Shown here: positions 2,791 to 6,066 of the stretch, piece by piece | Layout: each line of letters starts with the position of its first letter | Numbering within the stretch: the first letter of the stretch is position 1 | Source of the DNA: Thermomicrobiales bacterium | Lineage (GTDB): Bacteria; Chloroflexota; Chloroflexia; Thermomicrobiales; UBA6265 | Reading direction: 5' to 3' | Assembly (NCBI GenBank): GCA_041745115.1 | Contig: JBGTJM010000016.1 | Coordinates: 1-32,339, forward strand | DNA: 32,339 bases | Position numbers and translations under genes: made by a program | The notes under the pieces: model-generated | Seen by the model: only the letters and a program-made list of their open reading frames with translations | The model's database searches: none | What the model was told of the DNA's origin: nothing

Positions 2791-4214
2791 TGTTGATCGG
2801 GCCCGATGCCACTCAGTCCGTGAGCGCAGGGACCACGGTGATTACCGGTGGTCGTGTTGTCAACGAGAACGAAACGTTTCGAGCCGATATTACGATTCGG
2901 AACGGCCGTGTTAGCGAGTTCGGCTTCGAAGCCAGAATCGCTGAATCCGACACCCGTATCGATGCATCAGGGCTCATGGTGTTGCCCGGTGTGCTCGATG
3001 TCCACACGCATTTTCGGGAGCCAGATCCGAACACATTTGAGGGGTTTGCCACCGGTAGCGCCGCCGCGGCAGCGGGCGGCGTCACCACTGTTATCGAAAT
3101 GCCGCAAGCAGGACCGACGACGAAAAACCTGGACGACTTCCAGGAAAAGATCGCAGCCATCGGACGGTCGTCGACGATAGACATGGCCCTTTGGGGAGGA
3201 ATCATCGGAGGCGACGAACGTGATGAAGACGCCATCCGGGACATGGCCAGGAATGGAGCCGTCGCGTTCAAGTCGTTCATGGCACCTTCGAGTCCATCCT
3301 TTCCCGCAGTCGATACCGCGAAACTCCGCTGGGCCATGGCAGTCATTGCAGAAATTGGCCTGCCGTACGGGCTCCACGCTGAAGACGATCCTTCCCTGCA
3401 GTCAGGTATCCAGAGAATGAAGAGTTCAGGGAGGACCGATGCGCTGGCGCACGCGGAATCCCGGCCAACGCTTGTCGAAACGGTGGCGGTGCGAGCGGCC
3501 ATCTTGCTGGCGGAGCGGACTGGTTGCTGGCTCTACATCTGCCACTGTGCCTCCGCCGATGCACTCGAGTTGATCGCGGATGCCAGATCAGGCGGACTCA
3601 AAGTAACGATTGAAACGTGTCCTCAATACCTCGCAATGGCGATCCCGGATCTCGAAAGGCTGAAGGGTTTCGCTCGGTGCGCGCCAGCAATTCGGGATGA
3701 AGACGAAGTCGAGCGGATTTGGAATCATGTTCTGCAAGGTCACGTGGACATCATTTCCTCCGATCATGTTGCGACTTCTGCGGTCCTCAAGGAGGCTGGC
3801 GAGTCGAACATCTTTGACGCTCCCAATGGCCTGCCCGGAGTGCAGACGATGTTTCCAATTCTCTGGGACAGCGGGGTGAAAAACCGGGGGATGAGTCCGA
3901 ATCGGTTGGTTCAGATGATCTGTTCCAATCCTGCCCGCACCTTTGGCCTGTTTCCCCGAAAGGGGAGTCTTGCGCTCGGCGCTGACGCAGACCTGGTGAT
4001 ATTCAATCCTGATGAAACCTGGACGATTCGCAGTACCGATATGCGCTATCGTCAGAAGTGGACACCCCTGGAGGGTAGAAGTGTTGCTGGCAGAGTGAAA
4101 CGGACAATGGTGCGCGGCGAAACGGTCTACCTCGATGGCCCGAAGCAACACGCTGACGACAGCAGACCGCGCGTGGCAGGTCAGTTCCTGCACCACGGTT
4201 ACGGCTCGACCTGA
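2790..4214 (+). CDS. Allantoinase / dihydroorotase-type cyclic amidohydrolase (metal-dependent)
   Basis: Motifs seen: DVHTHFREP (HxH metal ligands), EGFATGSAAAAAGGVTTVIEMP, AFKSFMA (carboxylated-Lys position), GLHAED, ICHCAS, ETCPQYL, ISSDH. The start is uncertain. GTG 2790 overlaps the upstream TAG by 1 nt, and GTG 2820 (VSAGTTVITGGRVV) is an alternative. The part of the listed ORF from 2682 overlaps the previous gene and is unlikely to be coding. Confidence 0.8.
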   Translation: MLIGPDATQSVSAGTTVITGGRVVNENETFRADITIRNGRVSEFGFEARIAESDTRIDASGLMVLPGVLDVHTHFREPDPNTFEGFATGSAAAAAGGVTTVIEMPQAGPTTKNLDDFQEKIAAIGRSSTIDMALWGGIIGGDERDEDAIRDMARNGAVAFKSFMAPSSPSFPAVDTAKLRWAMAVIAEIGLPYGLHAEDDPSLQSGIQRMKSSGRTDALAHAESRPTLVETVAVRAAILLAERTGCWLYICHCASADALELIADARSGGLKVTIETCPQYLAMAIPDLERLKGFARCAPAIRDEDEVERIWNHVLQGHVDIISSDHVATSAVLKEAGESNIFDAPNGLPGVQTMFPILWDSGVKNRGMSPNRLVQMICSNPARTFGLFPRKGSLALGADADLVIFNPDETWTIRSTDMRYRQKWTPLEGRSVAGRVKRTMVRGETVYLDGPKQHADDSRPRVAGQFLHHGYGST

Positions 4215-4485
4215 TCGTTCTCCAGACTTGCAATCGATCGATGCCGGTCATTGACGACGGGTGCCGAGATTTCGCTCCTTGCATCGCTGGTGTATCAAAC
4301 GATCCAACCATTGACTCTCCTGAGATAGAACTGTGCCACGTGCCTGGCACGCAAGGTGCAGTCCGTTAGGGGGCAATAGTTGACGTTCTCGATCGCAATC
4401 GATCGAATCGCAGTTTGATACGACGCAATCCAGCGAATGACTCACTTCGCAAGTGGCGAGCGATAGGCAAAGGAATGACCCGAAC

Positions 4486-5238
4486 ATGGATAGCAATCGA
4501 TTTGATCAGCTGCCCCGGAAGTTGGCACAGCGGCACTCTCGGCGTGGCGCCGTTAGGATTCTTGTCGGCAGTGTGGCAGCAGCTATTGGCCTGTCTCGAG
4601 CTGCAGATCGCAGTTTCGCCCAGGACGGCCCACGCAATTGCCTGGAGATTTGTGCACGGGCATATTCTCCAGGCTTCGAACGTGATAACTGCGTTCAATT
4701 GGGTCAGCGGGGTGAAGGGCTATGCTACCTCGATCAGATCATGGTTCGACCAACGATTCGGGACTGTGACCCCGATAGTGACGACGATGGGATCGATACT
4801 ACGGACAATGACGGATTCGATACCACGAGCAACGATGGGGTTGACACTACCGACGGGGACGGGATCGACACCACTAGCGATGATGGAGTAAACACCACTG
4901 ACGGGGATGGGATCGACACGACAGACAACGACGGATTCGATACCACCGACAACGATGGGTTCGATACAACGGATGGTGATGGATTCGATACCACTGACAA
5001 CGACGGATATTCCACGCCGGAAGAGTCCGACAGCGACACGGACGACTGTATAACACCGATAACAATTCAACCGCTTCCTCCAGCGACCAGCGGACCTCAG
5101 TCTCTCGACGACGATTCGACGTCGGACGATTCTGGCTGGGCAGGAACCTCCGGCAGCGCAACCGTGAATACCGGCGGAGCCTCGACCTGGTACGACAGTC
5201 CGTCAGATGATTCCTGGTCAGCAGACAGCGATTCGTAA
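4486..5238 (+). CDS. Tat-signal, Cys-containing, highly acidic protein with ten D-x-D-G-x-D-T-T octapeptide repeats
   Basis: ATG 4486 gives MDSNRFDQLPRKLAQRHSRRGAVRILVGSVAAAIGLSRAA, which has a twin-arginine motif plus a hydrophobic core. A 5-Cys segment, ten octapeptide repeats and a D/S-rich tail follow. The listed GTG 4453 is a less likely start. Confidence 0.75.
   Translation: MDSNRFDQLPRKLAQRHSRRGAVRILVGSVAAAIGLSRAADRSFAQDGPRNCLEICARAYSPGFERDNCVQLGQRGEGLCYLDQIMVRPTIRDCDPDSDDDGIDTTDNDGFDTTSNDGVDTTDGDGIDTTSDDGVNTTDGDGIDTTDNDGFDTTDNDGFDTTDGDGFDTTDNDGYSTPEESDSDTDDCITPITIQPLPPATSGPQSLDDDSTSDDSGWAGTSGSATVNTGGASTWYDSPSDDSWSADSDS
4777..5016 (+). repeat. Ten head-to-tail 24-nt coding repeats (consensus gac aac gac gga ttc gat acc acc)
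   Basis: Read directly. The peptide units are SDDDGIDT-T, DNDGFDTT, SNDGVDTT, DGDGIDTT, SDDGVNTT, DGDGIDTT, DNDGFDTT, DNDGFDTT, DGDGFDTT, DNDGYSTP. All three antisense frames are also open here purely because of the repeat. Confidence 0.95.
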
Positions 5239-5304
5239 TTCGGAACACCTCGTTCGAATCGATGCGTTCGAGCGTTTTCCGAACCTGAACATCAACAGTT
5301 GCGC

Positions 5305-5337
5305 AAGCCGATCCGGAAACGGGTCGGCTTTTCGATT
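5305..5337 (+). terminator. Intrinsic terminator after the repeat-protein gene
   Basis: The stem is GCCGATCCG(5307-5315)/CGGGTCGGC(5320-5328), 9 bp with one G-U pair, and the loop is a GAAA tetraloop. It is followed by TTTTCGATT. It sits 67 nt downstream of the stop. Confidence 0.75.
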
Positions 5338-5394
5338 GGATAACAACCACAACCAGCAGCCTGCCGGTGAGTTGAGGCTGGTATTCTTCGGTTC

Positions 5395-6066
5395 ATGAGA
5401 ACGCCACGGCACACATTGATTTCACTGGCGGTCGCAGCTGCCACGGCCGCGATCGCATGGGCTATCGGGGTCAATCAGGGCTCCGCGATCATCGCTGGGG
5501 CGCTAGGAGGCATCCTGGCAAGCGTAGTCATGCAGCGTCGTACAATGCGTGAGGCAACTGGGGCATCGTTTTCCACCGAGCCGGAAGATCTGGAAGCGGC
5601 ATTTGAAACAGCGGCTGAGACCATCCTCCAGTTTCAGGCGCAGGCAGCAGAAGTAGTGGAAGATGGCGCTCGGGAGCTTGCGATGAGCCTGGGCGCACAA
5701 CTTACGAGGATTCTGACCCTGAGTCAGAGCGGTAATCGTGAAGCGACCTTGCCGCTGATTCTCGATCAGCTGATCGAGCCGGCCCAGGCGTTGATGACTG
5801 ATTATCTCTTTCTCCAGAAGCGTGGTGGTACCGCTGCAACCGACGCGATGACCAAAATCGCTTCCCGTGACTTGCCGGCCGCGGAGTATGCTGCCAGACA
5901 GGTTCTTGCCGAGTTCGATCGCTCCGGCGACGTTGACCTGAACGCCATCCGGCGGGCGGTCGACTTCTCCTTTTCGTTCGGTGGAGAAGCTGCTTCCCCA
6001 TCGTCCGAGATGTGGGGCAACCGGCAGCGACTCGTCGATGAAGCCGATCGCGCAAGAGAACAATAG
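5395..6066 (+). CDS. Hypothetical membrane-anchored helical protein (two N-terminal TM helices; possibly XpaC-like)
   Basis: The N-terminus LISLAVAAATAAIAWAIGV / AIIAGALGGILASVVM gives two predicted TM helices. The rest is Ala/Glu/Leu-rich and looks helical. The SD is weak. The family assignment is tentative. Confidence 0.55.
   Translation: MRTPRHTLISLAVAAATAAIAWAIGVNQGSAIIAGALGGILASVVMQRRTMREATGASFSTEPEDLEAAFETAAETILQFQAQAAEVVEDGARELAMSLGAQLTRILTLSQSGNREATLPLILDQLIEPAQALMTDYLFLQKRGGTAATDAMTKIASRDLPAAEYAARQVLAEFDRSGDVDLNAIRRAVDFSFSFGGEAASPSSEMWGNRQRLVDEADRAREQ

Follow-up and report, generated by a model that had tools for sequence, protein, structure and literature searches.

An acidic octapeptide-repeat protein with a twin-arginine-type leader in a Thermomicrobiales genome: a candidate exported cation binder assembled from two uncurated modules

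What does a bacterium make when it carries ten near-identical, aspartate-rich octapeptides behind an export leader, and what might such an array do outside the cell? The question is raised by an open reading frame (ORF) at positions 4486 to 5238, plus strand, of a 32,339-nucleotide (nt) stretch of DNA from a Thermomicrobiales bacterium of the phylum Chloroflexota (GenBank assembly GCA_041745115.1, contig JBGTJM010000016.1), referred to at its full length as the window. The frame is open, without an internal stop, and specifies a 250-amino-acid (aa) precursor, P0001, which a first-pass annotation made from the letters alone had described as an exported, extremely acidic repeat protein; the description is supported by a twin-arginine leader, by composition and by the coding frame. 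We suggest, with a probability of roughly 0.55 and from features of the sequence, that P0001 is an exported, disordered, polyanionic and multivalent binder of Ca2+ or other divalent cations, composed of two uncurated modules. Multivalent cation binding appears to be the best-supported function because the unit is a regular D-x-D-G-hydrophobic-D-T-T, because the array carries a net charge of -28 over 80 residues, and because relatives of the repeat occupy Ca-rich habitats.

RESULTS

Ten acidic octapeptides in a coding frame

The gene and its array were located as follows:

4486-5238, plus strand: coding sequence of P0001, stop codon counted in, with a third-position bias in the differences between repeat units
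4780-5019, plus strand: repeat array of ten 24-nt units, residues 99 to 178, D-[N/G/D]-D-G-[F/I/V]-D-T-T

The ten units are contiguous and read, in order, DDDGIDTT, DNDGFDTT, SNDGVDTT, DGDGIDTT, SDDGVNTT, DGDGIDTT, DNDGFDTT, DNDGFDTT, DGDGFDTT and DNDGYSTP; the register given previously (4777-5016) describes the same array shifted by one codon. By Tandem Repeats Finder, 4780-5008 repeats with a period of 24 nt (9.5 copies) and 4779-4995 with a higher-order period of 120 nt, or five units (about 80% matches). The DNA of unit 2 is 92% identical to that of unit 7 and the DNA of unit 1 is 79% identical to that of unit 6, a pattern that points to a five-unit block duplicated long ago (units 1 to 5 giving rise, in part, to units 6 to 10) and since diverged. 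The array contains 28 Asp residues, and P0001 is the sole ORF of its own genome with at least two repeat units.

Pairwise DNA identity between units ranges from 46 to 92%, and D3, G4 and T7 are invariant and T8 nearly so, with two to four codons in use per column. Mismatches to the unit consensus fall on codon positions 1, 2 and 3 in the proportion 15:7:34 (chi-square p = 3e-5), and this bias, together with the varied codons at invariant residues, indicates that the peptide is conserved and that the frame is coding. The P0001 ORF is a real coding gene, and the earlier proposal of a coding repeat in which peptide periodicity is conserved, at odds with recent slippage, is borne out by the same codon evidence. 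The accompanying claim that the units differ at synonymous or conservative positions holds for the most part, with 141 synonymous codon differences across unit pairs, but 108 differences are non-synonymous, chiefly in columns 1, 2, 5 and 6. ATG 4486 was chosen as the start in preference to GTG 4453 because most aligned members of the family described below open with MDxxRFD or MExxRFD. Run SRR28170462, as assembled separately by Logan, encodes the same 250-aa protein, on a contig that matches the window at 99.9% identity across 4244 nt; this speaks only weakly against an assembly artefact, as the run is perhaps also the source of the window assembly.

A twin-arginine-type leader and a four-cysteine head

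The N-terminal third of the precursor was resolved into a leader and a compact head:

4486-4620, plus strand: signal peptide of the twin-arginine translocation (Tat) type, residues 1 to 45
4498-4527, plus strand: conserved n-region RFDQLPRKLA
4540-4545, plus strand: twin arginine, R19-R20
Within 4486-4620, plus strand: Gly/Ala-rich h-region of the signal peptide, ILVGSVAAAIGL
C-region of the signal peptide: SRAADRSFA, with putative cleavage at SFA/QD, from AxA-like sites judged by eye across the family alignment
4639-4725, plus strand: four-Cys module C52-x3-C56-x12-C69-x10-C80, at the mature N terminus

A HMMER search of 1.84 billion protein representatives with P0001 gave 116 matches that fell into two disjoint classes, and about 50 of these (about 50 clusters at 50% identity) cover residues 1 to 82 alone. 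Their consensus is MDxxRFDxLTRxLAxGxSRRxxLxxLGG...GNSxCAxFCxxxFPPGxERGxCISxGAxGEGPC, and ten positions are invariant in a 34-sequence alignment (F6, D7, R19, R20, C52, C56, G63, C69, G78 and C80), all of them present in P0001. Judged by these residues, P0001 is a member of an unnamed family with an F-D, twin-arginine (FD-RR) leader and a four-Cys head. Beyond the module no resemblance is left between the family members, which go on into regions rich in Cys or Thr, and none of the other members found runs on into acidic octapeptide repeats. Two further searches for homologous proteins, one with residues 1 to 90 and one with an alignment, contributed almost no new sequences, since the N terminus of P0001 has few exact words in common with its relatives and the candidate list became swamped.

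All 34 aligned members retain F6, D7, R19 and R20 of the leader, and their SRRxxLK consensus is similar to the Tat motif SRRxFLK. The twin-arginine N terminus reported earlier is present (HSRRGAVRILVGSVAAAIGL...SFA/QD); in P0001 the Tat-like motif reads HSRRGAVRILVGSVAAAIGLSRAADRSFA/QD, with an h-region of weak hydrophobicity and an AxA-type site behind the arginine pair. Tat appears to be the likeliest route of export for P0001 because the arginine pair is invariant, the consensus is SRRxxLK, the h-region is rich in Gly and Ala, and the c-region is basic. When the module profile was compared with the PDB, the sole result lay over residues 5 to 25 of the leader (4498-4560), which weakly matched the Tat leader of the light chain of methylamine dehydrogenase (3c75_L, E 0.03).

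AlphaFold2, run with a 41-sequence alignment, placed leader helices at residues 8-15 and 19-35 and head helices at 50-59, 64-74 and 79-86, the latter with a predicted local distance difference test score (pLDDT) of 92 to 96. A Foldseek comparison of the full model with the PDB returned no neighbor (best E 7.4). No Pfam or NCBIfam model reached its cut-off on the leader/head module, and searches with ten family members and with repeat proteins of other genomes gave only sub-threshold matches to TAT_signal, Stig1 and C_rich_MXAN6577, along with compositional ones. The five-Cys segment previously noted before the repeats is real (Cys 52, 56, 69, 80 and 94), but most of it is the conserved four-Cys helical module, and a sixth cysteine, Cys188, follows the repeats and had been missed.

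The leader is not peculiar to P0001. A profile of the leader/head module matched 16 times in the bacterium's own genome, which is 85% complete, and scored the window at E 6e-28; 3 of the 16 matches (contigs C16, C478 and C574) also span the four-Cys head. A motif scan found at least 12 ORFs in that genome, P0001 included, with an MDxxRFDxLTRxLA...SRR leader. The further ORFs, at least 11, and the Tat components of the genome are the following:

Leader-bearing ORFs, own genome: C20:2842-5115, C41:5781-6296, C60:2519-3160, C60:3512-4852, C60:7875-end, C85:789-2555
Leader-bearing ORFs, own genome, continued: C134:2485-3141 (minus strand), C183:428-1312, C183:2203-end, C354:5541-end, C478:530-1144 (minus strand)
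TatC genes, own genome: C66:8383-9003 (minus strand) and C333:1902-2522 (plus strand)
TatA genes, own genome: C33:1491-1637 (plus strand) and C198:4513-4635 (minus strand)

Most of the mature parts of the leader-bearing ORFs, which reach 757 aa, are rich in Cys, in several cases to an extreme degree (CC and CxxxC repeats). Two of the proteins close with LPSTG or LPDTG, a membrane segment and a basic tail, a sortase-type sorting signal, and these LPXTG-like ends identify the two as envelope proteins. Twin-arginine leaders on disulfide-rich wall proteins were unexpected. With the leader common to about 50 clusters and to at least 12 proteins of one genome, the earlier view that Tat routing would be an oddity of this protein no longer stands. 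Among 41 genomes (the bacterium's own and 40 relatives) the leader or the head was matched in 13, all of the window's own taxonomic family, and in a sample of 301 genomes from the phylum such matches occurred in 19, representing several families.

Both TatC (190 and 184 bits) and TatA (60 and 48 bits) are matched twice in the genome, in every case above the cut-off. None of the tatC and tatA genes shares a contig with a leader-bearing gene. Bacillus subtilis has two TatAC pairs with distinct substrates, and by analogy one TatA/TatC pair might be specialized for the FD-RR leader class.

The tail and the mature protein

Two cysteines and a low-complexity tail complete the precursor:

4765-4767, plus strand: codon of Cys94, which with the codon of Cys188 (5047-5049) brackets the array
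5020-5235, plus strand: acidic, Ser/Asp/Trp-rich low-complexity tail, residues 179 to 250, net charge -16

After the putative SFA45/QD cut, the mature protein would have 205 residues, including 48 Asp and no Lys, and a charge of about -47. The tail, reported before as D/S-rich, is present as described and has neither an LPXTG motif nor a membrane anchor. A Cys94-Cys188 disulfide could, speculatively, close the array into a loop; the pair is absent from homologues, which leaves the idea without support from conservation.

Tests against calcium-binding families

P0001 gave no Pfam match at E values up to 1, no NCBIfam match and no PDB sequence match, and six relatives of the repeat with up to 52 units gave no Pfam match at E values up to 10 and no NCBIfam match. 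The placement of the repeat outside every named family in the first-pass annotation accords with these empty searches, both for P0001 and, in Pfam and NCBIfam, for relatives of 40 to 52 units. A regular expression for the thrombospondin type 3 (TSP3) signature DxDxDGxxDxxD found nothing in P0001, and the period is 8; the spacing is thus unlike the TSP3 consensus, as had been claimed. The RTX signature GGxGxD is likewise absent from P0001, which has no PF00353 match, and the array contains neither Glu nor the Cys-Glu pair of Excalibur (DxDxDGxxCE).

Relatives of the repeat in other genomes

Proteins with FN3 domains and TDNDGIDTT runs came up in a word-index search, one of them named as from a Caldilineaceae bacterium. 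Scanning 185,579 species genomes with a pattern back-translated from two units located 15 loci, given here by the taxon named in each record:

Dehalococcoidia: 7 loci
SAR202: 1 locus
Caldilineaceae: 3 loci
Chloroflexota: 1 locus
Actinomycetota: 2 loci
Leptolyngbyaceae: 1 locus

The related frames hold 3 to 52 units, always in frame, and encode proteins with hydrophobic N-terminal signals or anchors, acidic runs, Pro-Thr (PT) linkers and D/S-rich C-terminal tails. All differences in copy number between the related loci preserve the frame, in keeping with the earlier expectation of a coding repeat. Over 80 residues the P0001 array is 56 to 83% identical to the arrays of other genomes, and P0001 has the period-8 unit of the sponge-type family with conserved D1, D3, G4, D6 and T7. 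Many other HMMER matches in the repeat region were compositional (TTP, GSGTDTT and KDGSKTR runs, some with integrase or BIR domains) and were discarded. The Dehalococcoidia versions at loci L020, L030 and L031 show an 18-residue super-repeat, TDNDGVDT plus TDNDGIDTPY.

Several of the repeat-bearing bins presumably derive from sponge metagenome studies. One further locus belongs to the SB06xx bin series, whose bins include sponge-associated Entoporibacteria (PMC7883664), and the two Actinomycetota metagenome-assembled genomes (MAGs), labeled "Dino_bin," come from Centrosaurus fossil bone, a hydroxyapatite habitat (PMC8067395). The proteins of these two MAGs, which have no recognizable signal peptide, and the genes that accompany the Chloroflexota repeat were located as follows:

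L021:487-777 and L033:4748-5062: Actinomycetota repeat proteins of about 100 aa, MxExDxSLxDEDIRT... followed by 8 to 9 TDSDGVDT units
L019:3015-4232 (plus strand) and L028:988-2205 (minus strand): APH-fold kinase gene, with equivalents in L020, L022, L023, L025, L026, L027, L031 and L032

The kinase gene lies directly downstream of the repeat gene, on the same strand and within about 25 nt, at 10 of the 10 Chloroflexota loci that include downstream DNA. Its product of 405 residues is 50 to 95% identical between loci, matches the APH phosphotransferase fold (PF01636, E 7e-8), and weakly matches LxmK, a class V lanthipeptide Ser/Thr kinase, with a score far below the cut-off (E 2e-7); it has no sequence relative in the PDB. 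From this gene order, the sponge-type repeat proteins may be phosphorylated on Thr or Ser by a dedicated kinase, an idea not applicable to P0001, as tblastn found no homologue in the window or in the whole of its own genome.

Nine repeat-carrying genomes were without the FD-RR leader/head module. Judged from the distribution of the two modules, within the sequences searched only this genome fuses the leader/head with the repeat, and the modules are otherwise found in nonoverlapping sets of genomes. The label "soil metagenome" is attached to proteins that share at least 90% identity with those of the window. Synteny within the genus was not established, the neighboring amidohydrolase there being merely about 32% identical.

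Flanking DNA

The surroundings of the gene contain the following elements:

4215-4485, plus strand: 5' intergenic region, a 271-nt upstream gap
4230-4241 and 4395-4406: two copies of the 12-mer GCAATCGATCGA
4470-4474: AAGGA, a Shine-Dalgarno-like site about 11 nt before the ATG
5296-5338, plus strand: terminator-like hairpin, with an inner stem of 11 pairs (5305-5330), a GAAA loop (5316-5319) and an outer stem of 6 pairs

The 12-mer GCAATCGATCGA contains the palindrome TCGATCGA, and its two copies, which could represent an operator pair, flank an inverted repeat, GTGCCAGGCACGTGGCAC (4333-4350). A consensus scan of the 5' region found no sigma-70-like promoter, the fold of this region was not significant (z -1.7), and Rfam gave no match over 4150-5450. 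The hairpin, outer stem included, is stable (-25.1 kcal/mol, z -5.7) and has the GNRA-type loop described for it (GAAA). The U-tract, UUUUCGAUU, is a weak one, and the consensus terminator scan did not call the hairpin. A monocistronic gene is plausible, given the 271-nt gap upstream and a 156-nt gap with the hairpin downstream. The next ORF, at 5395-6066 (plus strand), is separated from the repeat gene by this hairpin and encodes 223 aa with an N-terminal hydrophobic region; no family was found above threshold, the weak best matches being to ATP-synt_I, BaxI_1 and DUF7519.

DISCUSSION

In the sequence of events that we propose, a lineage-restricted leader (MDxxRFDxLxxxLA-x3-SRR-x-x-L/V-K/R, with a Gly/Ala-rich h-region and an AxA-like site) would deliver the precursor to Tat, and cleavage after SFA45 would release the 205-aa mature protein. 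Its helical head of about 35 residues would have its four conserved cysteines oxidized, likely as two disulfides, and might serve in docking or oligomerization, while the remaining 150 or so residues, consisting of ten TDxDGxDT octapeptides and the acidic S/D/W tail, would be disordered in the apo state. Each octapeptide would offer three carboxylates, a Gly turn, one hydrophobic residue and two Thr hydroxyls, and in the register T-x-D-x-D-G-x-D-T-x-D successive units could form overlapping EF-loop-like sites. Such an array would be expected to bind about ten or more Ca2+ or other divalent cations with low to moderate affinity and would probably become more compact on binding. The protein could capture or buffer cations in the envelope, or adhere to Ca-bearing mineral or matrix surfaces, as a proteinaceous equivalent of the polyanions of the wall. 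Disordered segments that are rich in Asp and dotted with hydrophobic residues, termed "Excalibur-like," bind Ca2+ at about 50 to 100 uM and can compact (PMC8391695), and sites of the Dx[DN]xDG type evolve readily in acidic regions (PMC3123361).

Several observations weigh against this reading. P0001 contains one canonical Dx[DN]xDG site alone (DSDDDG, residues 97 to 102); a further seven sites have Thr at position 1 (TxDxDG, as TTDNDG or TTDGDG), and none has a bidentate acid at position 12, which in the TxDxDG register is occupied by the N, G or D of the next unit. In the full AlphaFold2 model the array is a low-confidence coil (pLDDT about 35 to 68), and the repeat segment modeled with a dedicated repeat alignment gave no fold (pLDDT 38.5), although AlphaFold2 models no ions and the repeat alignment is low in diversity. 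With respect to export, P0001 gives no match to the Tat-signal models PF10518 and TIGR01409 of Pfam and NCBIfam, its relatives score 13 to 15 bits on Tat-signal models with cut-offs of 22.7 and 16.7, and Tat export is counterintuitive for a family with mostly disulfide-rich cargo. A full-length ortholog of P0001 was found in 0 of 40 relatives, and a scan of Joint Genome Institute (JGI) metagenomes with P0001 gave 73 pattern matches and no tblastn relative; lacking an ortholog, long-term selection on this particular fusion is unproven.

Doubts of this kind invite other explanations, of which the most radical, that the array is non-coding or a product of recent slippage or misassembly and the ORF fortuitous, would be in keeping with the lack of an ortholog among relatives and with several further frames, on both strands, that are also open across the array; it has next to no probability in our estimation, given the codon-position bias, a peptide conserved over DNA units of such low identity, the N-terminal 82 residues that continue the same frame as a conserved protein family, and the agreement of a separate assembly. 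The export route is a matter of more substance. The protein could leave the cell by the general secretory (Sec) pathway, or an uncleaved leader could tether it, with the RR/FD motif put to some other use, for instance as a mark read by a factor that matures or sorts this Cys-rich family specifically. Disulfide-rich family cargo would suit unfolded export by Sec followed by oxidation outside the cytoplasm, the curated Tat-signal models are not reached, and the residues that follow the arginine pair in P0001 (GAVRIL) differ from the F-L-K of the consensus, but the invariance of that pair in all 34 members with their SRRxxLK consensus, the Gly/Ala-rich h-region, a c-region with basic residues and the duplication of Tat components in the genome render this alternative unlikely. 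Tat, moreover, reportedly tolerates small, unstructured, hydrophilic passengers (Richter et al. 2007, J Biol Chem).

Granted export, the array might still act as an extended, hydrated spacer or brush, O-glycosylated or phosphorylated at DTT and DTP and held open by its negative charge, so that P0001 would contribute to a mucin-like coat and cation binding would be incidental. Thr-rich linkers do follow the head directly in leader/head relatives (TTTEAPV and TTTTxxP runs in P0026 and P0028), the repeat of sponge Chloroflexota alternates with PT linkers and FN3 domains, the sponge-type gene is always followed by the APH-fold kinase with its weak LxmK match, and AlphaFold2 predicts coil. P0001, on the other hand, has no distal domain to be held out and no wall anchor, its genome lacks a homologue of the kinase, and a spacer would not need D3, G4 and D6 to be so strictly conserved, nor position 5 to be hydrophobic; we consider a spacer role doubtful, if worth keeping in view. 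Cation binding could also have a more familiar basis were the array a divergent member of an established Ca2+-binding repeat family, whether TSP3, the RTX beta-roll or the dockerin/EF-hand/Excalibur group. Its DxDG cores, the DSDDDG site and the T-x-D-x-D-G sites look like the opening half of an EF or TSP3 loop, and the general acidic composition is in keeping, but the absence of Pfam and NCBIfam matches at E values up to 1 to 10, for P0001 or for relatives of 40 to 52 units, the lack of a PDB sequence match and of the DxDxDGxxDxxD and GGxGxD signatures, a period of 8 that fits none of these families, and the missing Excalibur Cys-Glu make such membership highly improbable. An exported, disordered, multivalent cation binder is therefore the reading that we prefer.

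A bolder extension, which we put forward as unlikely, is that TDxDGxDT represents a new ion-dependent repeat, with overlapping EF-like loops that share ligands and fold on Ca2+ or minerals, recruited by several lineages, and that the FD-RR leader marks a branch of Tat dedicated to envelope proteins. Under this extension, sponge symbionts with the Thr/Ser kinase would form a phospho-acidic surface coat, and the same repeat would serve the fossil-bone Actinomycetota and this soil bacterium, while the FD-RR branch would perhaps use one TatC paralogue or a leader-binding chaperone.

The locus draws attention to two modules, an acidic repeat and a twin-arginine leader with an F-D n-region, that lie outside Pfam and NCBIfam and have no sequence relative in the PDB. 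Common to sponge symbionts, fossil-bone bacteria and a soil bacterium, the repeat is a candidate high-capacity Ca2+- or mineral-binding unit; the leader identifies an entire set of Cys-rich envelope proteins. Should the repeat bind Ca2+ or minerals, it could provide a handle on how uncultured Chloroflexota make contact with host matrix or mineral surfaces, and it would also be a small polyvalent tag for cations that is simple to produce. Should the leader prove Tat-dependent, why disulfide-rich and disordered proteins should travel through a pathway for folded proteins becomes a testable question.

Comparison with known systems

The closest parallel to the leader outside its own family is the long Tat leader of MauA (3c75 chain L), which shares the pattern F-D...L-S-R-R-V-A...S-R-R-G-A-I...L-G ahead of a Gly/Ala-rich h-region and, like the leader family, precedes a small and very disulfide-rich passenger; the match is weak and confined to the leader, and the passengers are unrelated. 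Within the FD-RR leader and Cx3C...C...C family, P0001 aligns throughout residues 1 to 82 and keeps all invariant residues, but whereas other members continue into Cys- or Thr-rich sequence, P0001 continues into acidic octapeptides.

Among Ca2+-binding proteins, the type 3 repeats of thrombospondin are wound around numerous Ca2+ ions (Kvansakul et al. 2004, cited in PMC3123361), and P0001 may work in a similar way, through helix-free, contiguous, Asp-rich loops with a DG turn. The TSP3 (PF02412) consensus DxDxDGxxDxxD, its 13/23-residue periods and its disulfides are, however, absent from P0001, and there is no hidden Markov model (HMM) match. The likeness to Dx[DN]xDG, EF-hand and Excalibur loops (PMC3123361, PMC8391695) lies in the exact DSDDDG and in seven TxDxDG sites followed, as in a loop, by a backbone position, Asp and Thr, but P0001 has Thr for the first Asp, no Glu or Asp at position 12 and no flanking helices, and its sites overlap every 8 residues. 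The nonapeptides of RTX proteins (GGxGxDxUx) are likewise short Gly/Asp tandem repeats of exported bacterial proteins, disordered without Ca2+ and folding on its addition; they differ in period (9 versus 8) and consensus, P0001 has no HemolysinCabind match, and the type I export signal at their C terminus contrasts with the N-terminal twin-arginine leader of P0001. In Asp density, interspersed hydrophobic residues and predicted disorder, P0001 resembles the acidic, disordered proteins of biomineralization (Starmaker and proteins with "condensed-charge" or "Excalibur-like" motifs; PMC8391695), whose low-affinity, multivalent Ca2+ binding would also be expected of P0001, but these are eukaryotic, nonhomologous and mostly irregular, while P0001 is strictly periodic and carries a bacterial export leader.

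The nearest relatives of the array remain the TDxDG[IV]DT[TP] repeat proteins of sponge-associated Chloroflexota and the small proteins of fossil-bone bacteria, which share the octapeptide, its period of 8 and the conserved D, D, G, D and T positions. Relatives of the repeat also have an acidic, D/S-rich tail, and the Chloroflexota versions are targeted beyond the cytoplasm, as P0001 probably is. The Chloroflexota proteins have ordinary hydrophobic signals or anchors, 14 to 52 units, super-repeats of 8+10 residues, PT linkers and sometimes FN3 domains, in contrast to the FD-RR leader, the four-Cys head and the ten units of P0001. In kind, P0001 belongs with the acidic, probably Ca2+-binding, exported tandem-repeat proteins, and it is built from two uncurated modules.

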